A stretch of DNA of 64,000 nt from Chloroflexota bacterium (GCA_003228125.1 QGNP01000002.1:64880-128879), one strand, 5' to 3'. Shown: positions 9,658-63,937, numbered from the stretch's first letter. Notes: generated by a model from the letters alone, not told the origin. Program-made: numbers and translations.

Positions 9658-9870
9658 TTACAAACGAAGTTTACCATGTGATGGCTGTCGTCTTCTAAGC
9701 TTGCCAAAAGCAAGCTCTTCTTCCTTTTTAATATCTTCAGGATCAGCGACTTCATTTTCATGAACAAATCCACATTGTACGCAAGTAGAAAACTCACCAT
9801 GTGTATCGTCTTCAGCTAATAAAAACCCAGTACATCGTGGGCATAAAGCTGGTGGTAAAGTATAAACCAT
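9658..9870 (-). CDS. Small zinc-ribbon protein (CPRC...CVQC) with acidic linker and basic RRRQPSHGKLRL tail, function unknown
   Basis: 70-aa ORF with noticeably higher GC than its neighbours. AGGAGG lies 7-8 nt upstream of the ATG. Two CxxC pairs. Confidence 0.5.
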   Translation of the reverse strand: MVYTLPPALCPRCTGFLLAEDDTHGEFSTCVQCGFVHENEVADPEDIKKEEELAFGKLRRRQPSHGKLRL

Positions 9871-10010
9871 AATTACAGACCTCCTTTGAAAACCGGACCC
9901 CCGGCATTAGGTCTGTTCCATTGCCTACGAAGTTAGCTTACGGGTTCGGATGGAACAGTCACCCGCTCAAAAAAGAGTTCACCCAAAAAAATGGTTTCTC
10001 CGCTCGTAAT
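9871..10010 (-). promoter_or_regulatory. GC-rich structured 5' leader (candidate cis-regulatory RNA) of the zinc-ribbon gene
   Basis: Helices read directly: 9913-9921 pairs with 9950-9958 (CTGTTCCAT/ATGGAACAG). 9876-9882 pairs with 9909-9915 (CAGACCT/AGGTCTG) and overlaps the SD. CCGG-ACCC-CCGG mini-hairpin at 9893-9904. Confidence 0.3.
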
Positions 10011-10107
10011 CACACTACATTTGTAATCTGTGTGAAAAAATTAGGCAAAATTCAAAAATTGAATTTGACTACAAACATTTCAAGGCTTAGTTTAAACTAG
10101 CATTATA

Positions 10108-10165: not shown

Positions 10166-10197
10166 AAAATTTATTTAATTATATAAAATTGGATATT

Positions 10198-11796
10198 ATG
10201 AAATTAAATTCATATCAAATAAAAATAATCTTTCTGTCCTTAATATTCTCTACTACAATTTCTTGTGAAAAAATAGCAAATATTATTCCTGATAATATTC
10301 CAACTAGAAATAACCCGGAAGTAACGCAAATTATTTCTAATGAAAAAATATCAATTGGCAAACCTATATTGCCATCATTAGATTTTATTCAAAAGAATTC
10401 TTCTCAAGAAAAATTAGATAAATTTGATACTTCAGTTTATGAGAGATCATTAAGTATAGTAAGAATTACTATTAAACTTATAGATAGTAATCAGAAAATT
10501 ATCGAAAGAAATGGCAACGGTGTAATTATTGATCGAAAAAATGGAATATTAATGACTACAAAGAGTTTAATTAATTTACAAGAACTATCAAAAAAAAATA
10601 TAATAGATTCAATTAAAATATCACTAAACTTTGATCAATCAGATAGTAAACCAAAGACATTCGATGCAAAAATAATTCCAACTGATGATTTCAATGTAAC
10701 ATTATTAAGAATAATCAATAATCCTAATCAAAAACAAACAAAACTACTGATGACTGAATCAAAAATGCCTAATTTTATCAATGTGTTGCCAGGTGATAAA
10801 ATAGAAATTATTAATTTTATTAAGGAAAATAATTCAGATGAATTCAGCATTAGTTTAACCGATGCTTTAATAAAAAGAAAATATAGCGGTGTTGGAAAAA
10901 CTTACAGTAAATGGCTTTCAACAAATATTGTACTTCCTAATTCATATTTAGGTACACCAGTATTTGATCAACAAGGTCTATTAATAGGTCTTGTTGATCA
11001 AATACGATACAATGAAGATTCCCCTTTAACATTCATAACTACAGCTTTAATTAGTGGAAAAGACATTGAGTCAATTCTTTTAATTGACAAACAGGCATCA
11101 ACAATTCTAAATCCTACTTTTAATTATTTAGATAATAAAGAGAATATTATTATAACTGAACCAGTTTTTTCAACAAATTCAATCATGCAAAATGGAGCTT
11201 TAACATTGTATGATTATAATTTTTACTTTAATGATAAAGTTTATCTTTTGTATTATCAATTTTTTACTCAAGGATTGCAAATAGGCGATTCAATAGAAGA
11301 AAAATGGTTTTGGAATGATATTCATCAAGAAAATATTTCTTCACAATATATATGGCAAGCTAACAATAATATTATTACTGATAGCATCTCTTTTTCTTAT
11401 CCAAAGGGAATTCCAAAAGGTATATGGACATTAGAAATTCATGTTAATGAACAAATAAAAGCATCTAGTTCTCTGAATGTAATGGAAGAAATGGATAAAA
11501 AAATATTCAAAAACTTCAAAATACAGAGCACTTTTTTAAATAGTAATCAACTATTACTCTCATTCAATTATGCTAACACTGTCTACGATGCAATTTTAAC
11601 TTATATCTTATATTCAAATGGAAAAATACTACATGAATCTAAGCAATTGACTTTTAATCAAAAGGGTGATGGCATAATAAATATCGTGTATTATGATACT
11701 AATGAAGAAGCTATGAATAGCTTAGATAATCTAGAAGTTGATTTTTTCATCAATTTTGAATTTGTAGGCAATGCTAAACTAAATAAAGGAGAATAA
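10198..11796 (+). CDS. Putative lipoprotein with a degenerate trypsin-like (S1C-like) domain and a C-terminal beta-rich region
   Basis: Signal plus lipobox-like LIFSTTISC. Protease-like blocks NGNGVIIDRKNGILMTTKSLI, DDFNVTLLRI and LGTPVFDQQGLLIGLV appear to lack the His and Ser. The track start at 10189 is TTG; the ATG is at 10198. Confidence 0.45.
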   Translation: MKLNSYQIKIIFLSLIFSTTISCEKIANIIPDNIPTRNNPEVTQIISNEKISIGKPILPSLDFIQKNSSQEKLDKFDTSVYERSLSIVRITIKLIDSNQKIIERNGNGVIIDRKNGILMTTKSLINLQELSKKNIIDSIKISLNFDQSDSKPKTFDAKIIPTDDFNVTLLRIINNPNQKQTKLLMTESKMPNFINVLPGDKIEIINFIKENNSDEFSISLTDALIKRKYSGVGKTYSKWLSTNIVLPNSYLGTPVFDQQGLLIGLVDQIRYNEDSPLTFITTALISGKDIESILLIDKQASTILNPTFNYLDNKENIIITEPVFSTNSIMQNGALTLYDYNFYFNDKVYLLYYQFFTQGLQIGDSIEEKWFWNDIHQENISSQYIWQANNNIITDSISFSYPKGIPKGIWTLEIHVNEQIKASSSLNVMEEMDKKIFKNFKIQSTFLNSNQLLLSFNYANTVYDAILTYILYSNGKILHESKQLTFNQKGDGIINIVYYDTNEEAMNSLDNLEVDFFINFEFVGNAKLNKGE

Positions 11797-32358: not shown

Positions 32359-33156
32359 TTATTTTTTACTCGCTAAAGAATAAAAACCAAAAAGTACCAG
32401 TAAAGTGAATCCTAAAGCTAAAATAATTATTTTATTATTGGAATTACTGCTGGAATCTTCTAACATTATTTTTTCTTCAATTTTTTGTTGTGAAGAAGGG
32501 TTGTTTGACGTCGATTTTTCATTTAAATTATTTTTATCTGAATCAATAGATAATGTATCTTTATTTTCAGAAGGAACGACAATAATCATATCTTCAGATT
32601 TTTTAGATTCTTTAACTACAACTGTATTTTCTTTTTTTTCTATTTTTGCAATCTCAGGAGTAACTCTTAGTGCAGGACCGGGCAACTCGGGAACTATCTT
32701 TTTATCTTTAGTGTTTCCAATAGAATCTGAGTCTGAATTTAAATTTCCTGGAGTATTGCCATTAATAGTTAAGGTTAATCCGATAGGATTGGTAGGTGCT
32801 CCACCTTTTCTCCAAATCATTGTTTCTGAAGCTTTTTTACCATCAACTGTAAAACCGATTTGAGAATTAACAAATGCACTGCATTCTCCTTCGTCTATAT
32901 AAGCCAAGAATATATATCCAGTAGAACTATTAGCTTCATTTAATATTTTTGCATCTTTGCAGTATTGATCATTAATTAAAATTTTCACTATTGTGGAATC
33001 ATTGCTTGCTATTCCAAAAACAGTCATGGGTGCTTGAGCAAATATTTTCAAGGGAGACAGAAAAAAGATAATTGATAATAGAATAAAAAAAACAATACGA
33101 GAAAATTTACTAGTAATTTTACTCTTATTAAATGAATAATAAAATAAGCTGCTCAT
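32359..33156 (-). CDS. Secreted protein with signal peptide, small Cys-containing domain, S/N/K-rich linker and C-terminal TM anchor
   Basis: N-terminal hydrophobic segment ending IFAQA, and C-terminal IIILALGFTLLVLFGFYSLASKK. I recognised no family. Confidence 0.4.
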   Translation of the reverse strand: MSSLFYYSFNKSKITSKFSRIVFFILLSIIFFLSPLKIFAQAPMTVFGIASNDSTIVKILINDQYCKDAKILNEANSSTGYIFLAYIDEGECSAFVNSQIGFTVDGKKASETMIWRKGGAPTNPIGLTLTINGNTPGNLNSDSDSIGNTKDKKIVPELPGPALRVTPEIAKIEKKENTVVVKESKKSEDMIIVVPSENKDTLSIDSDKNNLNEKSTSNNPSSQQKIEEKIMLEDSSSNSNNKIIILALGFTLLVLFGFYSLASKK

Positions 33157-44192: not shown

Positions 44193-44480
44193 TTATATTT
44201 CAATTGTGCCGCCTGCAACTGCTGGTACAATTGAAATTTCATCATTATCTTTAATGCTGCTTTGTAAATCATCAAGAAATCTTATGTCTTCTCCATTAAT
44301 ATAAATATTAACAAACCGACGCAGTGAGCCATCTTCTTCGCACACTCTTTCTTTAATTCCTGGAAATTGTTTCTCTAATTCATTAATAGCTGATTCAACA
44401 TTAGTGGCTGAAATAGAAACGAGCCCTTGATCTTGAGTCAAACTACGTAATGGAGTTGGGATTTTAACTTTAATAGTCAT
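44193..44480 (-). CDS. CysO/MoaD-family sulfur-carrier protein with a 4-residue tail after the Gly-Gly
   Basis: Collinear with M. tuberculosis CysO as I remember it (IPT.LR...RFVNIY.N.EDIRF...PAVAGG), but ends AVAGG-TIEI. Confidence 0.75.
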   Translation of the reverse strand: MTIKVKIPTPLRSLTQDQGLVSISATNVESAINELEKQFPGIKERVCEEDGSLRRFVNIYINGEDIRFLDDLQSSIKDNDEISIVPAVAGGTIEI

Positions 44481-44494
44481 TATATCATCCTTAA

Positions 44495-44737
44495 TTAACC
44501 TGCTATTACATCACCTTCAAGTGGATCAATTCTAACGCCTTTACTGCTTACCCACTCTAACGATTTAATAATTTCTGCTTCATTACCTATTAACTCCAAG
44601 ATAACCCATCCTATTTTTTCATCTACATCGGCCATCCTAATATTAGTAACCACTTTAAATTCATGTCCAAGTTGATAGACTAATGGTTCTGTAACAGATG
44701 CTGTTGAAAAAGTAAATCTTACTTTTTTGCTAGACAT
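44495..44737 (-). CDS. Stand-alone NIL-domain protein
   Basis: 80 aa. The pattern VRFTFSTASVTEPLVYQLGHEFKVVTNIRMADVDEKIGWVILELIG matches the NIL domain of MetN-type proteins. Confidence 0.65.
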   Translation of the reverse strand: MSSKKVRFTFSTASVTEPLVYQLGHEFKVVTNIRMADVDEKIGWVILELIGNEAEIIKSLEWVSSKGVRIDPLEGDVIAG

Positions 44738-44761
44738 AATTTTTTATTCCTTTAAAATATA

Positions 44762-45991
44762 TTACTTTAATTTATTAAATTGATCCATAAATTCTTCTGT
44801 TTTTGGAGAAATCATAATAGCTGGTTTCATATTATCTACAACAGCTTCAACAGTTTTTAAACCAGCTCCAGTTATAAATAATACTGTCTCTTCGTCTGTC
44901 GAAATTACACCTGATTCAACTAATTTTTTTAAACATGCCACTGAAACTCCACCAGCTGTTTCAGCAAAAATTCCTTCTGTTTCGGCAAGCAATTTAATTC
45001 CTTGGACTATTTCTGCATCAGAAGCCATCTCTGCTGAACCATCAGTTTCTTCCATAACTTTTAATGCATAATAGCCATCAGCTGGATTGCCAATGGCTAA
45101 AGAACGAGCAATTGTATTTGGTTTTTGTGGAACAAAATTTTTAGTACCTTCCTGAAAAGCTTTAGAAATTGGAGAGCATCCTGTTGCTTGAGCACCGCTC
45201 ATTCTAGTGTCTAAATTATTAATTAAACCTATGTGCTGCAACTCTTTAAAACCTTTCCATATTTTAGTAAATAATGATCCGGAAGCCATAGGCACTACGC
45301 AATGATCTGGTGCTCTCCATCCTAACTGTTCAGCAACTTCAAATGCTAAAGTTCTAGAACCTTCTGCATAATATGGCCTCATATTAATGTTAACAAAAGC
45401 CCAGTTATTTGAGGCAGCTAGCTCTGTACACAATCTATTAACATCGTCATAATTACCATCGACCATTGTTAAAATGGGGTTATATACCAAGCTACCTATT
45501 ACTTTACCTGACTCTAGATCGTCGGGCATAAAAACTAATGCACGCATACCAGCTTTTGCTGCATGTGCAGATACAGAATTAGCCAAATTGCCTGTAGAAG
45601 CACATGCTAAATCTTGATAACCAAACTGACGTGCTCTTGCAATAGCTATACTGACAACTCTATCTTTAAAAGACCATGTGGGATTTACCGTATCATTTTT
45701 TATCCATAAATTTTTTAATCCTAAATGCTTAGCTAGAGATTGCGATTTAATTAAAGGAGTAAAACCTGCGCCTATATCAACCTTAAAGCTCGTATCACAT
45801 GGGAGCAAGTCTTCATATCGCCATAAAGAACTCGGACCATTAGCAATTGATTCTTTTGAAATTTTTGCTTTAATTTGATCGTAATCATAATCAACTTCCA
45901 AGGGACCGAAGCAAAATTCACAAGAGTAAATAGCTAATAATTCAAATTTCCTACCGCATTCGCGACATTTTAAAGCAATTTCATATGACAT
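44762..45991 (-). CDS. Threonine-synthase-like PLP enzyme with N-terminal zinc ribbon (candidate O-phosphohomoserine-dependent homocysteine synthase, MetM-like)
   Basis: CRECG...CEFC ribbon. PLP-Lys block NPTWSFKDR. ThrC fold throughout. Controlled by a SAM riboswitch and followed by a sulfur carrier. Confidence 0.7.
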   Translation of the reverse strand: MSYEIALKCRECGRKFELLAIYSCEFCFGPLEVDYDYDQIKAKISKESIANGPSSLWRYEDLLPCDTSFKVDIGAGFTPLIKSQSLAKHLGLKNLWIKNDTVNPTWSFKDRVVSIAIARARQFGYQDLACASTGNLANSVSAHAAKAGMRALVFMPDDLESGKVIGSLVYNPILTMVDGNYDDVNRLCTELAASNNWAFVNINMRPYYAEGSRTLAFEVAEQLGWRAPDHCVVPMASGSLFTKIWKGFKELQHIGLINNLDTRMSGAQATGCSPISKAFQEGTKNFVPQKPNTIARSLAIGNPADGYYALKVMEETDGSAEMASDAEIVQGIKLLAETEGIFAETAGGVSVACLKKLVESGVISTDEETVLFITGAGLKTVEAVVDNMKPAIMISPKTEEFMDQFNKLK

Positions 45992-46047: not shown

Positions 46048-46156
46048 CTTTCATCGTCCCGTACAATATTCGGTCGGCTGTAGCACTATTTTTTAAATAA
46101 ATCACAGGTGCCGTGGTTTCTCAGGTCCGATTCCATCCACCACTCTAGATGATGTA
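46048..46156 (-). promoter_or_regulatory. SAM-I (S-box) riboswitch
   Basis: Minus strand: CATCATCTAGAGTGGTGGATGGAATCGGACCTGAGAAACCACGGCACC...GTGCTACAGCCGACCG...CGGGACGATGAAAG. P1 is TCATC/GATGA. Conserved AGAG, GGTGGA, GAAACC, GGCA(A)CC and GTGCTA blocks. Confidence 0.8.
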
Positions 46157-46236: not shown

Positions 46237-46959
46237 TTATTCTAAAATTGGAGGCACCCCTAGTTTTGCAGAAAAAATACCATTGCTATAAATAAAGCCA
46301 ATAATCTCAGCATTCAAAGGAATTTGAAAAGAAATCCATCCACTCAATAATAAGTCAGGTTTTAATAAAGTTGGAATTAAAGGATCATTTGTTCCTGAGA
46401 ACACTTTGTCTGCAGTAATACTTTCTGATTTTTTTTTATCAATGTATAAACTAATGGTAAAATCAGTAGGTCTAATTGAAAGTGGTTGAGAAATTGCCAT
46501 AGCTTCAATTTTAACAGCTACAAATCTATTGCTTGTATTATATTGAACAGATTTCTGAATATTAATAAATGGATCAATTAATATTTTAAGTGCAATTTGA
46601 CCAAATGATTTATTTTTTATATCATCATCAGAGTTTAATTCAGATAATTGAAATTTTAATTTATTCTGAATATCTTCTAGTTCTAAATAATTTTGCTCTA
46701 GGATTGTCAAATTATTATTAATTTCAGAAGAATCGACAAGTAGCTTATTTATCTTTAATTGAATTAATCTTTGTGAATCATTCATGTTAATCAATATCAA
46801 GCTAAATAAAAAAATAATGACTATTGTAAATAATGTGATAAAAAAAATAAAAATTTGTTTCCAGTACAATAAAAAATAGTCGGAAACATTATGAATTTTC
46901 AATTTTTTTCTTTCCAATGAATATCTCGGCAAATTTTCTCTGTTGTGGTTCTTTCGCAA
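46237..46959 (-). CDS. Membrane-anchored protein with coiled-coil segment and C-terminal beta domain (DUF4352-like?)
   Basis: One TM (IFFITLFTIVIIFLFSLILI), heptad-like region, beta-rich C-terminus. The 5' end overlaps the upstream MFS gene by 71 nt, so the true start is uncertain. Confidence 0.4.
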   Translation of the reverse strand: MRKNHNRENLPRYSLERKKLKIHNVSDYFLLYWKQIFIFFITLFTIVIIFLFSLILINMNDSQRLIQLKINKLLVDSSEINNNLTILEQNYLELEDIQNKLKFQLSELNSDDDIKNKSFGQIALKILIDPFINIQKSVQYNTSNRFVAVKIEAMAISQPLSIRPTDFTISLYIDKKKSESITADKVFSGTNDPLIPTLLKPDLLLSGWISFQIPLNAEIIGFIYSNGIFSAKLGVPPILE

Positions 46960-48207: not shown

Positions 48208-48753
48208 TTAAGCTTTTTCATCAGATCCAACTACGCCATCTCTGTAATTAGCTTTATTTATAACGGGAATGTCGAAATTATTTATTAACAATACTTCTCT
48301 ATAATACTCTGTAAAACCTTCTGCCCTCAGTCTTACAGGATGAAGAAGCATTAAATATCTATCATAGTCTTTTTTTATAGATGAGTGATCTTGATCTCTG
48401 CTCTCAGATCTTTTTATTAAAAATTCATTAATTATTTTTTCATCATAGATAATTTCAACATTGGCATGAATCCAAACATTTCTCACTGCCCAACGAGGTC
48501 CAATTGTTTCTCCACTAGTTTGCACCCAATGCATAGTTGCTTTTGGATTTGATTTTAAATGCTTGATCTTAAGATCTCCCTCTCTGTATCTACCAATTGT
48601 ACCTACTGTCCAACTAGCTTCAAAATTAACATGAGTGCTAACTTGCCGTATAGTAGACCGTCCATATTGATTAACAGTAGACAAAAAACTTACAACTCCA
48701 GGCTCATACCCACCAATAAATTCTTTAATTTGCTTAATAACTATTTCACTCAT
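48208..48753 (-). CDS. Possible PNPOx-like / F420-binding split-barrel protein
   Basis: Weak pattern only (FLSTVNQYGRSTIRQV...KHLKSNPKATMHW). About 180 aa. Confidence 0.3.
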   Translation of the reverse strand: MSEIVIKQIKEFIGGYEPGVVSFLSTVNQYGRSTIRQVSTHVNFEASWTVGTIGRYREGDLKIKHLKSNPKATMHWVQTSGETIGPRWAVRNVWIHANVEIIYDEKIINEFLIKRSESRDQDHSSIKKDYDRYLMLLHPVRLRAEGFTEYYREVLLINNFDIPVINKANYRDGVVGSDEKA

Positions 48754-51337: not shown

Positions 51338-52738
51338 TTAATTACGAATAATCAGTATCGCCTGATTATTCCTCTTCAAATTAATAATAATTCCTTGTTT
51401 TTTATTTCGAGCAGCAACAAACATTTCTTCGGTATTATTAACTGATTTTTGATTTATAGCTTGAATTAAATCTCCAGCTTGCAGACCTATTCGATATGCA
51501 TTTGAATTAATTTCTACAGATAAAATCTCTATTCCATTAGATACTGTTTTAAATATAGCACCATTTAAAACAGCAACATCTAGAGGAGGGCTAATTCCAA
51601 ATAGTAACGCTTCGTCCTGTTCTCTAATTGCTTGAATAATAAGTAATTTCTTCATTTTCCGTTTATCGCGCAAAAGCATAATACTGATTTCTTCTCCAAC
51701 TCTAAAAGTGCTTAATTTGCTATTGAAATCTGAAGGATTTGAAATATCAAAATCATTCATTGCAATAATTAAATCTCCCTTCATTAATCCAGCAATTTGA
51801 CTAACTGAATCCTGCAATATTTTTTCAATTACAACACCTTCTAAAGAAAAACGTTCATCGGCATGAATTTTTCGAACAACAAGGCCTAGGGTGCCTCTTT
51901 TAATTTCTCCAAATTCTATTAATTGATCAGCAATTTTCTTTGTTACATCTACTGGAATTGCAAAACCAATACCTACGCTAGAACCTTTGCTAGAAAAAAT
52001 TGCCGTATTAATACCTATTAACTGCCCCTTTAAATCAACTAAAGCACCTCCGGAATTTCCAGGATTAATAGATGCATCAGTTTGAATCAATCTTTCATAG
52101 CCATCACTAATGTTGCTATTAGCTCTTTCAAGTGCACTGACAATTCCATAAGTCACAGTATGCCCAAGCCCAAATGGATTGCCAATTGCAATAACATGAT
52201 CTCCTACTTGAACTTGTGAATTGATTGCTAATGAAACTTGCATTAAATTATCACTGTCTATTTGCAATACAGCTAAATCAATTTCAGGATCAGACCCAAC
52301 AAGTTCTGCTAACAATTTACGTTCGTCAAATAAGGTTACAAAAATTTGATCTGCGTCTTTTACTACGTGATAATTTGTTAAAATATATCCATTCATAGCA
52401 TCATAAACTACGCCTGAACCAATGCTTTGCACTTCTTTCTCAATCATCATATTATTTCGAAAAATATTATTAAAAAAAGGATCTTGAAAAAAGGGATTAT
52501 TATTAAAAGCCACGTTCCCTTTAGTGGTTATATTAACTACTGATGGATTGACCTTTTTGATTATTGGGGCTAAAGATATAGGTTCTATCATTACATTTGA
52601 TATAGCAGGGTTTGTTTGTTGCAGTAATTCGTCGCCAGATTCATAAAAATGAAACTTGTATTGATTTAATATAAGTCCAACTATTAATATAAGTATTACT
52701 GCATTCAAAGAATATAACAATTTAATTTTTTGATCCAT
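51338..52738 (-). CDS. htrA: HtrA/DegP serine protease with two PDZ domains
   Basis: Catalytic blocks TNYHVV, DLAVLQI and GNSGGAL, N-terminal TM, two PDZ-like regions. Confidence 0.9.
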   Translation of the reverse strand: MDQKIKLLYSLNAVILILIVGLILNQYKFHFYESGDELLQQTNPAISNVMIEPISLAPIIKKVNPSVVNITTKGNVAFNNNPFFQDPFFNNIFRNNMMIEKEVQSIGSGVVYDAMNGYILTNYHVVKDADQIFVTLFDERKLLAELVGSDPEIDLAVLQIDSDNLMQVSLAINSQVQVGDHVIAIGNPFGLGHTVTYGIVSALERANSNISDGYERLIQTDASINPGNSGGALVDLKGQLIGINTAIFSSKGSSVGIGFAIPVDVTKKIADQLIEFGEIKRGTLGLVVRKIHADERFSLEGVVIEKILQDSVSQIAGLMKGDLIIAMNDFDISNPSDFNSKLSTFRVGEEISIMLLRDKRKMKKLLIIQAIREQDEALLFGISPPLDVAVLNGAIFKTVSNGIEILSVEINSNAYRIGLQAGDLIQAINQKSVNNTEEMFVAARNKKQGIIINLKRNNQAILIIRN

Positions 52739-52760: not shown

Positions 52761-52857
52761 TGGCGAGAATGCGCAGGAGTCGAACCTACCCAAGCTTGCT
52801 TAGCAAGCTTGCATTAGTTTTGAAGACTAAGAGTGCCACCGGACACTATCCATTCTC
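52761..52857 (-). tRNA. selC: tRNA-Sec (anticodon TCA)
   Basis: Folded by hand: anticodon arm TTAGT-CTTCAAA-ACTAA, 6-bp D stem AGTGTC/GGCACT with 4-nt loop CGGT, long variable arm (CAAGCTTGC-TAA-GCAAGCTTG), T arm GTAGG-TTCGACT-CCTGC, 7-8 bp acceptor, G discriminator, CCA. Confidence 0.85.
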
Positions 52858-52926: not shown

Positions 52927-53385
52927 ATGTCCGATGAAGATCAATCAGTTGAAAAAGTTTCAGATTCTGATAGATCCCAGGCTTCTGAGAAAAACACTGC
53001 TAAAATGTGGAAATTTGTAAAAAAATTTGCAGAGAAAAGCGGTAGCTTCTTGCATCCTCAAAAAGACATAACTGAGTTCCTAGTTATTGGTCTTGCAAAG
53101 CATATAGATGAATTAGGTAGGCCTCTTTGCCCATGTAACTTTTATGAAAATAAAGAAGAAGAAGTAAAAAAAAGCACATGGATATGCCCATGTGACGAAA
53201 TGCAAAAATGGAAATATTGTCACTGAATGCTTTTTTGTAATGAGGAAGGTCTTCCCATCACCGAACACTTACCAGACGACCATGAAGGAAAAGAAATTTA
53301 TGGAATTATTAAAGATATTCTGCCTGATAAAGGCAGAGTACTAACAAGGCTCAGTAAACAACAAGGTCGAGAAATAAACAAATAA
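52927..53385 (+). CDS. Ferredoxin:thioredoxin reductase catalytic-subunit homologue, predicted selenoprotein (UGA at 53224-53226 read as Sec)
   Basis: CPC-x16-CPC-x8-CH[TGA]MLF. The frame stays open and FTR-like after the TGA until TAA at 53383-53385. selC lies 70 nt upstream and a SECIS-like hairpin lies downstream. Confidence 0.75.
53240..53258 (+). promoter_or_regulatory. Candidate bacterial SECIS hairpin
   Basis: AUG-A-GGAA-GGUC-UUCC-CAU: 7 bp with a bulged A on the 5' side and a GGUC apical loop. It starts 13 nt after the UGA. Confidence 0.55.
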
Positions 53386-53390
53386 ATTAT

Positions 53391-53714
53391 TTATAAAACA
53401 AGATCAATTTCTTTTGCTAATGCTTGCTTTGGCTTGAATCCTACAATTTGACCAACTTGATTTCCATCTTTAAAAATTAAAAGTGTTGGTATAGATCTGA
53501 TTCCATACTTGCCGGCAATATTAGGATTATCATCAGTATTTAATTTATAAAACTTAACTTTGCCTTCGTAATCATTTGCTAGTTCCTCTACGACTGGAGC
53601 AACCATTCTGCATGGACCGCACCAAGGTGCCCAAAAATCAACAAGCACGGGTAAATCTGAAGCAATCACATCGCTGTCAAAAGTGTTATCTGAAGTATCC
53701 ACTGGCTTTGACAA
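53391..53714 (-). CDS. trxA: Thioredoxin
   Basis: WAPWCGPCR active site, 107 aa. Confidence 0.95.
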   Translation of the reverse strand: MSKPVDTSDNTFDSDVIASDLPVLVDFWAPWCGPCRMVAPVVEELANDYEGKVKFYKLNTDDNPNIAGKYGIRSIPTLLIFKDGNQVGQIVGFKPKQALAKEIDLVL

Positions 53715-58219: not shown

Positions 58220-59638
58220 ATGGAAAAAATTAATTTTGGCACAGAAGGTTGGCGAGGCACATTAAATACAACTTTCAATAAAAAAAATATTAATATTTTT
58301 ATATTTGCATTTGCAGAATATTTAAAAGAACAATCTGTAAATAGTAAAGTATTGATAGGATATGATACTAGGTTAAGATCTAAGGCATTCGCTAAATTTA
58401 GCGCTAAATTACTACAGCAATTAGATGTGCATGTAGAAATTTCAGAAAATTACATACATACTCCGCTATTTTCTTTTTCAGTATTAAAAAGTAAATCAAA
58501 TTATGGTTTAATTTTTACTGCTAGTCATAATCCTGCAAATTGGCATGGATTAAAAATTAAAGATCGTCATGGAACACCGATAAAAGAAGAAGAAATAAAG
58601 AAAATAATCAAAAAGCTTAAAAAAAATAACATCATTAAAGATAAAAATACAAAAAAATTAAAATTAATTAAAAAATATAACTTTGAAAAAGAATATATAA
58701 GTTCAATTTCTAAAACAATAGACACTTCTATTTTAAATAAAAATGATACGAAAATTGTAGTCGACTACATGTACGGATCTACAATAGACTGGCTAACTAA
58801 GTTCACATTTCTTGAATCAATGAAAATAAAATCAGTACACAATAAAATAAACCCAACATTCCCAGGAATAGATGCGCCAGAACCAATAGAAAAAAATTTA
58901 CAAAAAATAAAAAATGAAATGACACAAAATAAATATGATTTAGGTATAGCATTCGATGGAGATGGAGACAGATGTGGAATTTTAGATGAAAATGGTCATT
59001 ATGTTAATTCACAAATAATATATTCACTTATTACTCAATATATAGTAAGGGAACAAAAAAAACGTGGAAATATTATTAAATCAGTATCAACCACTTCACT
59101 ATTAAACAAAATTGCAATAAAGCACAATTGTAAAATAATTGAAACAAAAATTGGTTTTAAACATTTAAGTAAAAGATTAATGAATAAAAGATCTATAATT
59201 GCCGGTGAAGAATCAGGTGGGATTGCATTCAAAAATCATATCCCTGATAGAGATGGAATATTAACTGCATTGATGATCGTAGAGATATTAATTAAGAGCA
59301 AAAAAAAATTATCACAATTAATAAATGATTTATTTATTGAATATGGGGAATATTTTTATAATAGAGAAGATATTAAAATTAACAATGACATAGATTATTT
59401 ACTAGATTTTTTTACTTCTAACGAATTTACTTCTAAGATTAAATCAAAAATTATAAATATAACAAAAAAAGATGGTTATAAAATAAATTTTACTAATGGA
59501 TCATGGATATTAATTAGAAAAAGTGGAACTGAGCCTCTTATAAGAATATATTCAGAAATGAGGGCAAATAATATTTCAAACTATATAGTAAAATGCATTA
59601 AAAATAACGATATCATTTTTTCAGAAAAAACTTTTTAA
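58220..59638 (+). CDS. Phosphoglucomutase/phosphomannomutase family protein
   Basis: Active-site TASHNPANWHG, Mg site FDGDGDRCG, sugar loop GEESGG. Confidence 0.85.
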   Translation: MEKINFGTEGWRGTLNTTFNKKNINIFIFAFAEYLKEQSVNSKVLIGYDTRLRSKAFAKFSAKLLQQLDVHVEISENYIHTPLFSFSVLKSKSNYGLIFTASHNPANWHGLKIKDRHGTPIKEEEIKKIIKKLKKNNIIKDKNTKKLKLIKKYNFEKEYISSISKTIDTSILNKNDTKIVVDYMYGSTIDWLTKFTFLESMKIKSVHNKINPTFPGIDAPEPIEKNLQKIKNEMTQNKYDLGIAFDGDGDRCGILDENGHYVNSQIIYSLITQYIVREQKKRGNIIKSVSTTSLLNKIAIKHNCKIIETKIGFKHLSKRLMNKRSIIAGEESGGIAFKNHIPDRDGILTALMIVEILIKSKKKLSQLINDLFIEYGEYFYNREDIKINNDIDYLLDFFTSNEFTSKIKSKIINITKKDGYKINFTNGSWILIRKSGTEPLIRIYSEMRANNISNYIVKCIKNNDIIFSEKTF

Positions 59639-60030
59639 CGCTTCGTATATTGAGGAGCTTTTCTAGCCCTTTTTAATCCAGGTTTCTTTCTTTCTTTTAC
59701 CCTAGCATCTCTAGTTAATAATCCACTAGATCTTAATTGAGTTCTAAATGTATCATCAAATACCAATAATGCCTTTGCAATACCTTGACTTATAGCACCT
59801 GACCAACCAGATTGACCGCCGCCCGAGACTTTAATTTGAATATTAAACTTATTGATAGTATTAGTGACGGTTAATGGCGCCAGCATCTCCTGAATTAAAG
59901 AGGCTCGAGGAATAGATTTTTCAGGAGAATCACCATTAATTACTACAGTGCCATTGCCCGCATATAATCTAACTTTTGCAACACTTGTTTTCCTTTTACC
60001 AAGGCCATAATAATATTTAGATTCTTCCAT
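59635..60030 (-). CDS. rpsI: 30S ribosomal protein S9
   Basis: C-terminal RKKPGLKRARKAPQYTKR. Confidence 0.95.
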   Translation of the reverse strand: MEESKYYYGLGKRKTSVAKVRLYAGNGTVVINGDSPEKSIPRASLIQEMLAPLTVTNTINKFNIQIKVSGGGQSGWSGAISQGIAKALLVFDDTFRTQLRSSGLLTRDARVKERKKPGLKRARKAPQYTKR

Positions 60031-60047
60031 AATTTCTCCAAAACTAT

Positions 60048-60689
60048 TTATTTATTGACTTCATTAATAAGAGCAATAATTTCATCTTTTTTTAATTTTT
60101 TATCAAAAGTAATATGCAAGCTTTCAGCTTTTGCGACTAATTCTATTTTTGTCATTTTTTTTAAAGAATTTTTTGTTGTCTCATCTAAATTATTTTGAGT
60201 ATCTTTTTCAACTTTATTAAGTACTTTAGGTTTAACCTTAGACTCTTTTAATGAAACATCTCCTTTTTTAAAGTTTAATTGCGATGCATGTGGATGTTTA
60301 TTATCAGAATAAACTTTTAGCATCCTAAAAAGACTTCTTCCTCTAACATTATGAGGAAGCATGCCTTTGACTGCTTTTTCAATAATCTTTGTTGAGTCAA
60401 TGCTCATTTGTTCTTCAAAAGTTCTAGAGCGAATGCCCCCCGGATAACCAGAATGTCGATAGTACAACTTTTGTTCAAACTTTTTACCAGTAACAACAAC
60501 TTTATTAGCATTAATAACGACTACAAAATCTCCCATAATAAGACTAGGTTCGTATTCAGGCTTATGTTTACCGAGCAATAATTTACTAATTTCAGATGCT
60601 AATCGTCCTAAAGTTTTATTATTTGCATCAATTAAATGCCATTTAATTGATATGTCTTGTTTTTTTAATCTATAAGTTTTATTCATCAT
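60048..60689 (-). CDS. rplM: 50S ribosomal protein L13 with a C-terminal extension of about 70 aa (Rho_N/HeH-like)
   Basis: The L13 core runs to ...NKHPHASQ. The extra tail ends LKKMTKIELVAKAESLHITFDKKLKKDEIIALINEV. Confidence 0.9.
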   Translation of the reverse strand: MMNKTYRLKKQDISIKWHLIDANNKTLGRLASEISKLLLGKHKPEYEPSLIMGDFVVVINANKVVVTGKKFEQKLYYRHSGYPGGIRSRTFEEQMSIDSTKIIEKAVKGMLPHNVRGRSLFRMLKVYSDNKHPHASQLNFKKGDVSLKESKVKPKVLNKVEKDTQNNLDETTKNSLKKMTKIELVAKAESLHITFDKKLKKDEIIALINEVNK

Positions 60690-60700
60690 TAATCCTTAGT

Positions 60701-61450
60701 TTACTGAAAAAGAGGCATGTCATATTGAATTTTTGTTAAATTTAAACCTTTTGCAGGTGCAGTAAAATGAACACTGCCAGATGGACCATTAATTAAATTC
60801 TCAAATTCATTGACTGATATTTTATGAGTACCGACATGTTTAATTGCACCAATCATTCGTCTTACTTGATGAGGTAAAAATCCAGATGCTTGGACAAATA
60901 CTTGAATATTTTTTTCATTGCCAATCATTTTTATTGATTGTAATTGACGAATTGTTGAGTAATTTTCAGGAACTTTACCAGCAAAAGGAGACCAGTCAAT
61001 TGAATCATAAGGCAAAGTCTCGATAGCTTTTTTCATCGATTGAACATCCAAGCAATAGTTCATCTGCCAAGTAAATCTAGATTGCTGTGGCGAACGAGCT
61101 TGGCCATGCTGTATTGAATAAGTATAAAGCCTACTTATAGCATCGCTTCTCGGGTTAAAAAATGAATCAACTGTACACGCTGATTTAATTGAAATATCTA
61201 TATCAAGAAAATGATTTAAAGCTGATTGCAATTCAAAAGAATTAACTTCCTTATTTATATCAATTTTTACTACTTGACCAAAAGCATGAACTCCACTATC
61301 AGTTCTACTGGCAAATTTTGTTCTTTTATTTAGAGAGGCAAATTTAATTATAGAATCTTCTAACGTTCCTTGTACGGTACGTACATTAGGCTGATACTGC
61401 GAACCAGCAAAATTTGTTCCATCATATTCTAACAACAAAGCATACTCCAT
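60701..61450 (-). CDS. truA: tRNA pseudouridine(38-40) synthase
   Basis: ASRTDSGVHA catalytic Asp block, in the rplQ-truA-rplM context. Confidence 0.9.
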   Translation of the reverse strand: MEYALLLEYDGTNFAGSQYQPNVRTVQGTLEDSIIKFASLNKRTKFASRTDSGVHAFGQVVKIDINKEVNSFELQSALNHFLDIDISIKSACTVDSFFNPRSDAISRLYTYSIQHGQARSPQQSRFTWQMNYCLDVQSMKKAIETLPYDSIDWSPFAGKVPENYSTIRQLQSIKMIGNEKNIQVFVQASGFLPHQVRRMIGAIKHVGTHKISVNEFENLINGPSGSVHFTAPAKGLNLTKIQYDMPLFQ

Positions 61451-61462
61451 TTATTATTTATC

Positions 61463-61813
61463 CTACACAAGTTCAATTCTTGCCATTTTAGAATCGTCTC
61501 CTTGTCTATTAGGCAATTTAATGACCCTAGTATAGCCACCGTTTCTCTCAGTGTATTTTGGGGCTATTTCTTTAAATAATTTTTTAACAATTTTTTTATC
61601 ATATATAAAACTAGCCGCTTTCTGTTTAGCAATAACAGTGTCTTTTTTACCTAAGGTAATCATCTGATCGATTAAACGTCTCAATTCTTTTGCACGGGCT
61701 TCAGTAGTTTTAACATATCCATAATTAAGAACATCAGTGGTAAGATTACGCAACATAGACATACGTTGACTTGTTGGCATATCAAATTTACGTCTTTGAA
61801 TCCTATGTTTCAC
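61463..61813 (-). CDS. rplQ: 50S ribosomal protein L17
   Basis: MRHR-type N-terminus (MKHRIQRRKF), follows rpoA. Confidence 0.95.
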   Translation of the reverse strand: MKHRIQRRKFDMPTSQRMSMLRNLTTDVLNYGYVKTTEARAKELRRLIDQMITLGKKDTVIAKQKAASFIYDKKIVKKLFKEIAPKYTERNGGYTRVIKLPNRQGDDSKMARIELV

Positions 61814-61815
61814 AA

Positions 61816-62880
61816 TTAATCCTTATCTTCATCAACTAATGCTTCCATTAAAGCTTGCCCTAAAGAACCTATATCATCTCTATTAATCTCACTGCTGGCA
61901 ATTTCAGTGTCTTGCTCTTCAGATCTTTGTTCCTCTAATAAAATTGTTTTTTGACTTCTAGGCGCAGGAAACCCATGAGCTATTAATTTTCCTTTTAATT
62001 CTACATAGGACTTAAGGCCAAAATTACGTAAAGACATCAAATCTTCTTCTGGTTTTTCAAGAACAATTCCAACAGTTATAAGACCTGATCTTTTAAGACA
62101 ATTATAAGCTCTTACTGATAATCCAAGATGTTCAATTGGTGTTTCATGACCTTCAAAAGGTTTTGGTTCTTCTTCTTGAATTTCTGCTACTTCAACTTTT
62201 CCAAACTCATAAAAATTAAATAATTGATCTCTTAAAATTTCTGCAGAAATAGATAGGGCTCTTTTGCCCTCAATGGTTCCATCAGTCCAAACATCCATTT
62301 CTAATTTATCAAAATTAGTATCTTGACCAACCCTAGTATTAGTCACATTAAAATTTACTCTTCTAATTGGAGAGTAAATCGAGTCAACGGGAATAATACC
62401 AATAGTATCTGTTTTTTTATTTTGATCAGATGTCACAAATCCTCTACCACTTTGGACATACATGTCAACGCTTAATGCAGCATTAACATCAGTCAATGTT
62501 GCTAAATATAAATCTGGATTCATTACTTCGTAATCAGCAGATGTTTCAATCATACCTGCAGTTACAATTTGACCTCCAGTTACATTTAAGCTAATATTTG
62601 TTGGTCTGTCAGCAAATGCTTTTAATCTAACTTCTTTTAGATTCAAAAGAAATTCGACAATATCTTCTTTCATAAAATCAAGTGTAGAAAATTCATGTTC
62701 TGCACCTTCAATCTTCACCCAAGTTATAGCCGCTCCAGGTAAAGAGGAGAGAAGGATCCTACGCAAAGAATTTCCTAAAGTAGTTCCAAAACCTGGTTGA
62801 AGAGGTTCAGCAACGACTCTAATAAATTCACTTTCTTCTTTTTCTAAAATAACCTCAGGAATTACAAATTCGCCAGCCAC
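61816..62880 (-). CDS. rpoA: DNA-directed RNA polymerase alpha subunit
   Basis: NTD (GNSLRRILLSS) and CTD (LGLSVRAYNCLKR), with an acidic tail. Confidence 0.95.
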   Translation of the reverse strand: MAGEFVIPEVILEKEESEFIRVVAEPLQPGFGTTLGNSLRRILLSSLPGAAITWVKIEGAEHEFSTLDFMKEDIVEFLLNLKEVRLKAFADRPTNISLNVTGGQIVTAGMIETSADYEVMNPDLYLATLTDVNAALSVDMYVQSGRGFVTSDQNKKTDTIGIIPVDSIYSPIRRVNFNVTNTRVGQDTNFDKLEMDVWTDGTIEGKRALSISAEILRDQLFNFYEFGKVEVAEIQEEEPKPFEGHETPIEHLGLSVRAYNCLKRSGLITVGIVLEKPEEDLMSLRNFGLKSYVELKGKLIAHGFPAPRSQKTILLEEQRSEEQDTEIASSEINRDDIGSLGQALMEALVDEDKD

Positions 62881-62924
62881 AAAATACTCCTTTTCAAAAT
62901 AACTATTAAGTTATTAATACGAAA

Positions 62925-63533
62925 CTACCTTGAATAATACTCAACAATTGCATTTGGATTATATATAGGCTCTATATCATCCAGATTAGGCCTACTTATA
63001 ACTTGGCCTGTAAGTTTTTTTTCATCTAATTCTAACCAATTCGGATTTGTACGATTTTTAATTTCTTCTTTAAGAATTTTGACATAATTGCTATTTAAGC
63101 CTTTCTTTGTAAAAGAGATCTCATGTCCAATTTGTATATGAGCACTTGGAATATCTAACTTTTTACCTCCAACAGAAATATGTCCGTGCGTAACTAATTG
63201 CCTTGCTTGATCTCTAGTTGCTGCAAAACCTAATCTATAAACAGCATTGTCTAATCTTTCTTCAAGTAAGAGCAATAACTCATCTCCAGTTGGATTAGGA
63301 CTTCTAACAGCTTTTTCATAAACATTTCTAAATTGTTTTTCAACCAATCCATATGCATATCGAACTTTTTGTTTTTCAATTAATTGTACGCCTCTATCTG
63401 AAATCTTTTTTCTTCTAGTAGGAGGTGGGCCAGGAGGATTTGTCTTCCTAGATTTTGTAATAGATGCATTAGCAAAAATAGGCGCTCCGTACCTTCTAGC
63501 TTTTCTAACTCGTGGACCAGTGTATCTTGACAT
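62925..63533 (-). CDS. rpsD: 30S ribosomal protein S4
   Basis: MSRYTGPRVRKARRYG N-terminus and S4 RNA-binding domain. Confidence 0.95.
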   Translation of the reverse strand: MSRYTGPRVRKARRYGAPIFANASITKSRKTNPPGPPPTRRKKISDRGVQLIEKQKVRYAYGLVEKQFRNVYEKAVRSPNPTGDELLLLLEERLDNAVYRLGFAATRDQARQLVTHGHISVGGKKLDIPSAHIQIGHEISFTKKGLNSNYVKILKEEIKNRTNPNWLELDEKKLTGQVISRPNLDDIEPIYNPNAIVEYYSR

Positions 63534-63535
63534 AA

Positions 63536-63937
63536 TTACTTCCTCGGTCTTCTTCTAGCACGACATCCATTATGAGGCATTGGAGTAATGTCACGCATTG
63601 CTTTTACTTTTATTCCTGCAGAAGCAAGTGCTCGAATTGCTGCTTCTCTACCAGATCCTGGACCATTAATATAAATATCTAATTCTCTCATGCCATTATC
63701 CATGGCTTTAGACGCAACAGTTTCTGCAGCTAACTGAGCAGCAAATGGAGTACTTTTACGAGATCCTGTAAATCCAGCCGTACCACCACTACCCCAAGCA
63801 ATAACATTGCCAGAAGTATCAGTAATAGTAATGACAGTATTATTAAAGGTTGAATTAATATACGCTCTTCCTATTGGTATATTTTTTTTCTTAGCCTTAG
63901 CTTTCGAACTCTTTTGACCACCAACACTCTTTGCCAT
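63536..63937 (-). CDS. rpsK: 30S ribosomal protein S11
   Basis: [21 protein letters not shown] block and [13 protein letters not shown]-terminus. Confidence 0.95.

Follow-up and report, generated by a model that had tools for sequence, protein, structure and literature searches.

The catalytic chains of the ferredoxin:thioredoxin reductases (FTR) of cyanobacteria and chloroplasts, FtrC and FTRB, are represented by the structures 1DJ7, 2PU9 and 7BZK. In Synechocystis FtrC, residues 55, 74, 76 and 85 reportedly bind a [4Fe-4S] cluster (structures of Dai et al. 2000 and 2007), and Cys57 and Cys87 are said to form the redox-active disulfide. Of this pair, Cys57 is said to attack thioredoxin, and Cys87 to stay by the cluster and ligate iron in a one-electron intermediate. 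Here we analysed a 64,000-nucleotide stretch of DNA from a Chloroflexota bacterium (GCA_003228125.1, QGNP01000002.1:64880-128879; hereafter the window), in which a reading made from the sequence alone had picked out an FTR catalytic-chain homologue interrupted by a UGA codon. Our analysis indicates that this UGA very probably encodes selenocysteine (Sec) at the position equivalent to Cys87, in a single 152-residue chain of canonical type.

A Sec form of FTR has been established as a prediction since 2008, in a distant double-Sec subfamily. In their survey of metagenomes from Global Ocean Sampling (GOS), Zhang and Gladyshev (2008, PMC2398784) described a new selenoprotein family made up of homologues of the FTR catalytic subunit, with two Sec sequences, one of which carried Sec at both redox-active positions. 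In Dataset S2 of that paper, both GOS reads (JCVI_READ_1093012271142 and 841845) are of a short CPU...CPC...CIU type. Reviews of 2022 and 2026 list a 'ferredoxin-thioredoxin reductase, CxU', and the 2026 review cites the NCBIfam model NF041072, with two Sec, which bears the name 'FtrB family double-selenoprotein' and has a cut-off of 160 bits. Our literature search found the 2008 GOS paper and these two reviews of the double-Sec type only, and no paper on a single-Sec canonical FtrC with a CHU motif.

The window protein resembles the NF041072 family in being COG4802/FTR-like, in having a UGA at the cluster-side redox Cys (the CxU motif) and in having a putative Sec insertion sequence (SECIS) after the UGA. 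NF041072 proteins, however, have two Sec (CPU...CPC...CIU), no His in the last motif, another spacing and ~104 residues, whereas the joined window product contains only one in-frame UGA, begins its signature with CPC and retains Cys at the thioredoxin-attacking position (Cys70). We considered membership of NF041072 for the window protein and ruled it out: it scores 41.3 bits with the model, where the GOS sequence scores 187.5, and is 27% identical to the GOS double-Sec protein. More distant likenesses in sequence and fold lead to ferredoxin-dependent disulfide reductases (FDR) from archaea and Desulfobacterota, namely the FDR of M. acetivorans (4TPU) and the Grx-FDR fusion of Desulfotalea (7PWE), FTR-like [4Fe-4S] disulfide reductases of non-phototrophs that work without a variable subunit. 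The similarity to these is much weaker (E = 1e-7 and 4e-3, TM-score 0.35-0.44), and they differ further in their fused rubredoxin or glutaredoxin domains and in the absence of Sec from the solved proteins.

With the cyanobacterial and chloroplast chains, by contrast, the window protein shares the Pfam family, 38-42% core identity over a gapless alignment, an identical CPC-x16-CPC-x8-CH(C/U) spacing in which His again separates the last two positions, and a matching predicted fold. It departs from them in its predicted Sec in place of Cys87, in ~20 more N-terminal residues than cyanobacterial FtrC, and in a ~45-residue extension, EGLPITEhLPxxHEGrEIYG..DP.PDKGR, that replaces the cyanobacterial tail; in addition, no variable-subunit gene adjoins the window gene. 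Judged by these comparisons, the gene represents a distinct, canonical FtrC-like subfamily with a single predicted Sec at the cluster-side position.

The joined reading frame and its FTR signature

On the plus strand, a frame opens with ATG at 52927, meets TGA at 53224-53226 and then stays open in the same frame as far as TAA at 53383-53385, which gives 99 + 1 + 52 = 152 codons. The residues before the TGA, ...LCPCNFYENKEEEVKKSTWICPCDEMQKWKYCH, end in KWKYCH, and the same frame after the TGA gives MLFCNEEGLPITEHLPDDHEGKEIYGIIKDILPDKGRVLTRLSKQQGREINK. Joined, the product carries the motif C68-P-C70, x16, C87-P-C89, x8, C98-H-U100-MLF. When TGA was treated as sense throughout the 64 kb, 52927-53385 alone among the TGA-bridged long frames lacked a gene on the opposite strand as an explanation. 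By our own arithmetic, the chance of 52 open codons is ~0.013, at ~8% stops per random codon and 30% GC, and the part after the UGA contains family-specific conserved residues.

We used the joined product, with Cys in place of U, for profile and alignment searches. It is a homologue of the FTR catalytic chains: it scores 88.5 bits on Pfam FeThRed_B (PF02943; E = 3.7e-25), where the gathering score is 22, and gives gapless alignments both with the Synechocystis FTR catalytic chain 1DJ7_A (E = 7.7e-23) and with the Arabidopsis chain 7BZK_A. At a constant offset to 1DJ7_A, C68, C70, C87, C89, C98 and U100 correspond to FtrC residues 55, 57, 74, 76, 85 and 87, respectively. Five Cys of the six-Cys signature of FTR catalytic chains are present at the exact spacing and the sixth position is the UGA, a column occupied by Cys in all full-length homologues aligned. 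The sequence-only reading had given the frame, its stop codons and the 152-codon total correctly; its further proposals, namely the FTR catalytic-chain identity, the CPC-x16-CPC-x8-CHC signature and the coincidence of the UGA with the second Cys of CHC (Cys87), are each borne out by these matches, with a one-to-one mapping onto FtrC.

The predicted structure agrees with this assignment. An AlphaFold2 model built from 26 sequences has a mean pLDDT of 80, and in Foldseek each of its top 10 PDB matches is an FTR catalytic chain, with E from 6.5e-5 to 1.9e-3 and a TM-score on the target of 0.67-0.70. The C-terminal extension of ~45 residues relative to FtrC is conserved and common to more than 1000 bacterial homologues.

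Conserved UGA, downstream hairpin and adjacent tRNA-Sec gene

We examined the same codon in homologues from genomes and metagenomes. A scan of GTDB with one genome per species returned 21 loci, of which the five closest belong to Dehalococcoidia or Chloroflexota metagenome-assembled genomes (MAGs; L001-L005, 63-66% GC, ~70% amino acid identity). In each of the five the codon is TGA and a conserved open reading frame (ORF) comes after it, and the other 16 have TGC or TGT. A metagenome scan with a degenerate DNA pattern, ending six codons upstream of the hairpin described below, yielded at least 119 stretches, each of which translates to an FTR catalytic chain with CH-UGA-[ML]LF; those among the matches listed span 36-74% GC and several C-terminal types. 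With contig L145 included, the codon is TGA in at least 125 independent contigs, and a conserved ORF of at least 52 codons continues beyond it. Among the matches listed, 108 Sec forms agree with the window at an identity of 0.70 in the 73 residues that precede the UGA and of 0.69 in the 38 that follow, and the number of open codons after the UGA never falls below 52 in 123 complete Sec forms. The conservation beyond the stop that the sequence-only reading had described is thereby found, and the check it had proposed, whether orthologues end at this codon, shows that they do not. A neighbour-joining tree built on 222 unique cores requires that this one codon switched between Sec and Cys at least 14 times, and the window protein lies in a large Sec clade.

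A SECIS-like hairpin lies within the coding sequence downstream of the UGA. In the window, its outer pairs join 53237-38 with 53260-61, and its lower stem joins AUG at 53240-42 with CAU at 53256-58. Above a bulged A at 53243, an upper stem of GGAA (53244-47) and UUCC (53252-55) closes the apical loop GGUC (53248-51), which is 25-28 nt from the U of the UGA. We turned to comparative tests because thermodynamics alone gives no support, and the case for a real hairpin rests on this comparative evidence.

The main class comprises 77 unique UGA forms, in which the 12 nt from +21 to +32 read GGNN-GGUC-NNCC; in 73 of these 77, and in the window, they read GGAA-GGUC-UUCC. The string GGAAGGUCUUCC is identical in the 73 forms with A-U at pair 23-30, from 30% to 74% GC, and was not found in the 21 Cys forms examined. 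GGAA-GGUC-UUCC fixes the codons GAA-GGU-CUU-CC(N) for E-G-L-P, where the 21 Cys forms have varied synonymous codons. Across the 77 forms, the upper-stem pair 23-30 is A-U in 73 and C-G in 2; further down, pair 19-33 is U-G in 43, G-C in 24, C-G in 6 and G-U in 2, with 2 non-pairing, pair 18-34 is U-A in 61 and C-G in 5, and pair 17-35 is A-U in 68. Position 33 falls on the third base of a Pro codon, a base that is free to vary, and its identity goes with that of the first base of codon 6, itself dependent on the amino acid there (E or A versus S or P). We read this dependence of position 33 on codon 6 as a signature of selection on RNA structure. Other subclades build different stems around the same Gly-codon GG, with compensatory changes of their own. 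One example is GUAAACCC-GGA-GGGUUUAC, with G-U and C-G replacements; others are CGGAAGA-GGG-UCUUCCG, and GGAC-GGA-GUCC with a long UGUUCG/CGAACA lower stem.

Folding stability was assessed by comparing each form with 200 synonymous recodings of itself. Sec forms are more stable than their recodings (mean z -1.21, Wilcoxon p = 1.7e-17), whereas Cys forms have a mean z of -0.06 (Sec versus Cys, Mann-Whitney p = 2.4e-5); the sequences compared are related, which makes these p-values optimistic and overstates independence. Of 97 Sec forms, 69 place the Gly-codon GG in the apical loop, versus 4 of 16 Cys forms. The window hairpin resembles the bacterial SECIS of the E. coli fdhF type in starting ~11-17 nt past the UGA within the coding sequence, in conserved guanosines in a small apical loop (here GGUC) and in a bulged nucleotide beneath the upper stem. 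It is unlike that type in its short stem (4 + 3 pairs, with 2 more past a mismatch), in being a predicted SelB target, and in the different stems that subclades of this protein family possess. Rfam at gathering thresholds reported no SECIS family here, a result that is uninformative as to this hairpin.

The tRNA-Sec gene (selC) beside the FTR gene matches Rfam RF01852 with 72 bits against a gathering score of 47 (E = 8.9e-13). It lies 69 nt upstream of the FTR ATG on the opposite strand, in divergent orientation, which confirms the upstream tRNA-Sec of the sequence-only reading and adds its strand. Besides the syntenic near-identical contig L141, six loci of one subclade (L028, L072, L099, L107, L136 and L137) have a tRNA-Sec gene 0.07-2.5 kb from the Sec-FTR gene. 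In L136 and L137 it is likewise divergent, with a spacer of ~70-120 nt, and L137 (36% GC) has a layout that mirrors the one in the window. This recurrence suggests that selC and the Sec-FTR gene are kept together.

Table 1 Features of the locus, in coordinates of the window.
Feature	Coordinates	Strand	Basis
FTR catalytic-chain-type [4Fe-4S] disulfide reductase gene, 152 residues, predicted Sec100	52927..53385	+	Translation; PF02943; 1DJ7_A alignment; AlphaFold2/Foldseek
In-frame UGA, predicted Sec100, equivalent of Synechocystis FtrC Cys87 (second Cys of CHC)	53224..53226	+	Alignment column; gapless PDB alignment
SECIS-like hairpin inside coding sequence	53237..53261	+	Comparative: covariation, synonymous-site constraint
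tRNA-Sec gene (selC), anticodon UCA	52761..52857	-	ARAGORN; Rfam RF01852
Thioredoxin gene (WCGPC)	53391..53714	-	PF00085; TIGR01068

Weighing the readings of the UGA

Several observations, besides the relatedness of the sequences behind the p-values above, count against Sec decoding. The hairpin of the window, an AT-rich copy of 30% GC, is weak (-5.3 kcal/mol, pair probabilities ~0.4). An alternative fold at -6.8 kcal/mol competes with it, and the minimum-energy fold of the window is a different pairing. In single-sequence folding of the window and two homologues, the post-UGA region was no better than shuffles (z ~0). The SECIS-like hairpin of the sequence-only reading stands as a conserved element with covariation and falls short in folding energy, in the window copy taken alone. 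Moreover, the five closest Cys-form relatives, examined as a within-clade control, gave a mixed picture: none carries GGAAGGUCUUCC, and two of them, L147 and L150, have a stable hairpin in this segment (z = -2.3 and -1.5 against synonymous recoding, over 36 nt from +10 to +45 past the TGC). Hairpin propensity is therefore not exclusive to Sec forms; these two hairpins may be relics of a recent Sec-to-Cys conversion, or chance in GC-rich DNA.

The surroundings of the gene supply further points of this kind. Pfam scans of the window ORFs detected no selA, selB or selD within 64 kb; they covered every ORF of at least 100 aa not nested in a longer opposite-strand ORF, with the matches for 58220-63937 taken from the precomputed set of the syntenic contig L141. 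Neither did the ten ORFs flanking tRNA-Sec in L028 and L107 include any of the three genes, and a tblastn search of 1.04 Mb of DNA with an approximate sequence of E. coli SelD gave no match. No FtrV variable-subunit gene and no ferredoxin gene is adjacent to the FTR gene, and no PF02941 (FtrV) match occurred among the window ORFs scanned, which included few of the small ones. Finally, the UGA of the window copy is directly followed by an ATG, which would in principle allow the 52-aa part to be made as a product of its own.

The best-surviving alternative, to which we give a small chance, is that the UGA is read as an amino acid other than Sec, either as Trp or Gly under a reassigned code or as Cys or Trp through near-cognate decoding or a mis-charged tRNA-Sec. 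One pipeline did render the homologue P0002 as 'CHW', its gene caller having turned the TGA into Trp; in other systems, Cys is known to be inserted at Sec codons when selenium is limiting; and Sec synthesis genes were not seen in the 64-kb window. Yet TGA is an ordinary stop in the window, where it closes 7 of 50 long ORFs, and an in-frame TGA occurs in none of the other genes of the 64 kb. The organism therefore uses the standard code, without reassignment. The position also demands a Cys-like redox residue, and the neighbouring tRNA-Sec is a dedicated one (RF01852, 72 bits); some Cys may also be inserted through it, which would be a side reaction within the same machinery.

Slightly less probable still is termination at the UGA, which would leave an FTR-like protein cut short at 99 residues and perhaps, as a product apart, a 52-residue peptide started at the ATG at 53227. 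Gene callers make exactly this 99 + 52 split, NCBI holds the 52-aa piece as a protein of its own (PZC40972.1, MFB0900821.1), and TGA is a normal stop elsewhere in the window. The truncated product, however, would be without the Cys87 equivalent and hence without the redox-active pair. The stop would fall on the catalytic Cys codon, and nowhere else, in at least 125 contigs, and the sequence beyond it is in the same frame and conserved as much as that upstream. The ATG after the UGA is a feature of the window copy; CTG or CTA, neither of them a usual start, takes its place in most homologues. The covarying hairpin that follows the UGA and the selC gene that adjoins the FTR gene argue against termination as well. 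The preference of the sequence-only reading for Sec decoding over termination is thus supported by the conserved UGA, the downstream ORF, the covarying hairpin and the tRNA-Sec gene.

A pseudogene, or an assembly or sequencing error of TGA for TGC or TGT, would take just one base change (TGY to TGA) in a window that apparently comes from a MAG, but is effectively refuted by recurrence across independent assemblies, the same TGA being present in four more independent near-identical assemblies (L141-L144), in 5 GTDB genomes and in at least 119 diverse metagenome stretches, with no further downstream stop or frameshift in any of the 123 complete copies among the matches listed.

Sec decoding, the reading we prefer, would then proceed by analogy with the standard bacterial mechanism: Sec-tRNA(Sec) from the neighbouring selC would be brought by SelB to the hairpin at 53237-61, within the conserved EEGLPI segment. 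As in the Synechocystis and plant enzymes, Cys68, Cys87, Cys89 and Cys98 would hold the [4Fe-4S] cluster, and Cys70 and Sec100 would form the redox-active pair beside it, as a selenenylsulfide. A ferredoxin-type donor would open this bond by two successive one-electron transfers, and Cys70 would attack the disulfide of the thioredoxin encoded by the adjacent gene. Residue 100 would remain at the cluster and transiently ligate iron, giving an intermediate with an Fe-Se bond. The selenenylsulfide and the transient Fe-Se contact are a reasonable inference from the published FTR mechanism. From homology and synteny, the protein is likely a thioredoxin reductase dependent on a ferredoxin-type donor, with a Cys70-Sec100 selenenylsulfide beside a [4Fe-4S] cluster. 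The donor would not be light-reduced ferredoxin, because the host lineage is non-photosynthetic.

Genomic setting, host and annotation

The thioredoxin gene next to the FTR gene is well defined (PF00085, E = 6e-34; TIGR01068, 137.8 bits against a cut-off of 96.8). It is convergent with the FTR gene, with 5 nt between the two stop codons, and plsX comes next. In most of 32 Sec-FTR loci, the TGA has a homologous trx 190-390 nt away, usually convergent and 67-79% identical to that of the window, and the Dehalococcoidia-type clade of Sec forms retains the FTR-trx(-plsX) neighbourhood. The five closest Cys-form relatives (L147-L151) have no adjacent thioredoxin, and their contexts are unrelated. 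Because trx adjoins Sec-FTR genes and not these closest Cys forms, thioredoxin is supported as the presumed substrate of the FTR, in a pattern that is confounded with lineage. In one of the Cys forms (L148), a glutaredoxin-fused pyridine-nucleotide-disulfide oxidoreductase is encoded ~2 kb upstream.

The window proteins RpoA, MetK, thioredoxin and a CysS-like protein have exact copies in MAGs labelled Chloroflexi/Chloroflexota bacterium and Dehalococcoidia bacterium, and the CysS-like protein has an exact copy in Tara Oceans data too. The host is a non-photosynthetic marine lineage of Dehalococcoidia (Chloroflexota). At ~30% GC, the window is ordinary chromosome, with ilv/leu and F420 genes, the glycine cleavage system, metK, ahcY, rpoA and ribosomal protein genes.

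Public deposits split the FTR gene into 99-aa and 52-aa pieces, as gene callers do in L141-L143. The 52-aa part (53227-53385, plus strand) is named 'ferredoxin-thioredoxin reductase catalytic chain' in one of its two records and 'hypothetical protein' in the other. The selenoprotein is systematically mis-annotated: at least 125 contigs carry the same unrecognised form, and NF041072, the sole curated model of a Sec-FTR, misses the window protein. We found no NCBIfam model that covers the single-Sec subfamily; homology-based resources such as BSepDB may nevertheless contain it.

Tentatively, and with rather less than even confidence, we suggest that the gene belongs to a widespread, uncurated subfamily of single-Sec canonical FTRs in marine and terrestrial Chloroflexota and other phyla, that its cluster intermediate has an Fe-Se(Sec) bond, and that the link to selC and trx explains why Sec is retained. 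If so, selenium would sit at the residue that transiently ligates the [4Fe-4S] cluster and not at the substrate-attacking position, and thioredoxin reduction would be a principal reason for which these streamlined genomes keep Sec machinery. With Sec at the Cys87 equivalent and the attacking Cys kept, the protein would offer a natural selenium probe of the unusual iron site in the FTR one-electron intermediate. The Sec/Cys switches, at least 14 in number, together with the selC/trx neighbourhood, would make a compact system for asking when marine Dehalococcoidia use selenium. Current understanding is not overturned, Cys-to-Sec replacement at redox-active sites being common among bacterial thiol-oxidoreductase selenoproteins; the main value would lie in the correction of an annotation error that is widespread and in a natural occurrence of selenium at a cluster-interacting residue.

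Directly adjoining selC is a gene for a DegP/HtrA (MucD-like) protease of 466 codons at 51338-52738 on the minus strand. A 'MucD' selenoprotein family is listed in the GOS survey (Zhang and Gladyshev 2008, PMC2398784). We considered this protease as a second selenoprotein and ruled it out: its ORF is intact, with no in-frame TGA.

Elsewhere in the window, four ORFs gave no Pfam match at the thresholds used, at 10189-11796 (plus strand) and at 32359-33156, 46237-46959 and 48208-48753 (all minus strand). They encode 535, 265, 240 and 181 aa, respectively, the first beginning with a signal-peptide-like segment. Two riboswitches were also identified. A c-di-AMP (ydaO-type) riboswitch lies at 9907-10057 on the minus strand (RF00379, 58 bits), between two plus-strand genes; the first minus-strand ORF downstream of it (9658-9870) encodes neither a transporter nor a cell-wall enzyme, being a 70-residue CxxC...CxxC zinc-ribbon-like peptide. 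A SAM riboswitch at 46048-46155 on the minus strand (RF00162, 52.7 bits) lies upstream of a PLP-dependent enzyme (PALP). The minus-strand genes at 44193-45991, encoding this enzyme and then small NIL-domain and ThiS-like proteins, look like a cluster for sulfur-carrier-protein-dependent biosynthesis of Met or Cys.

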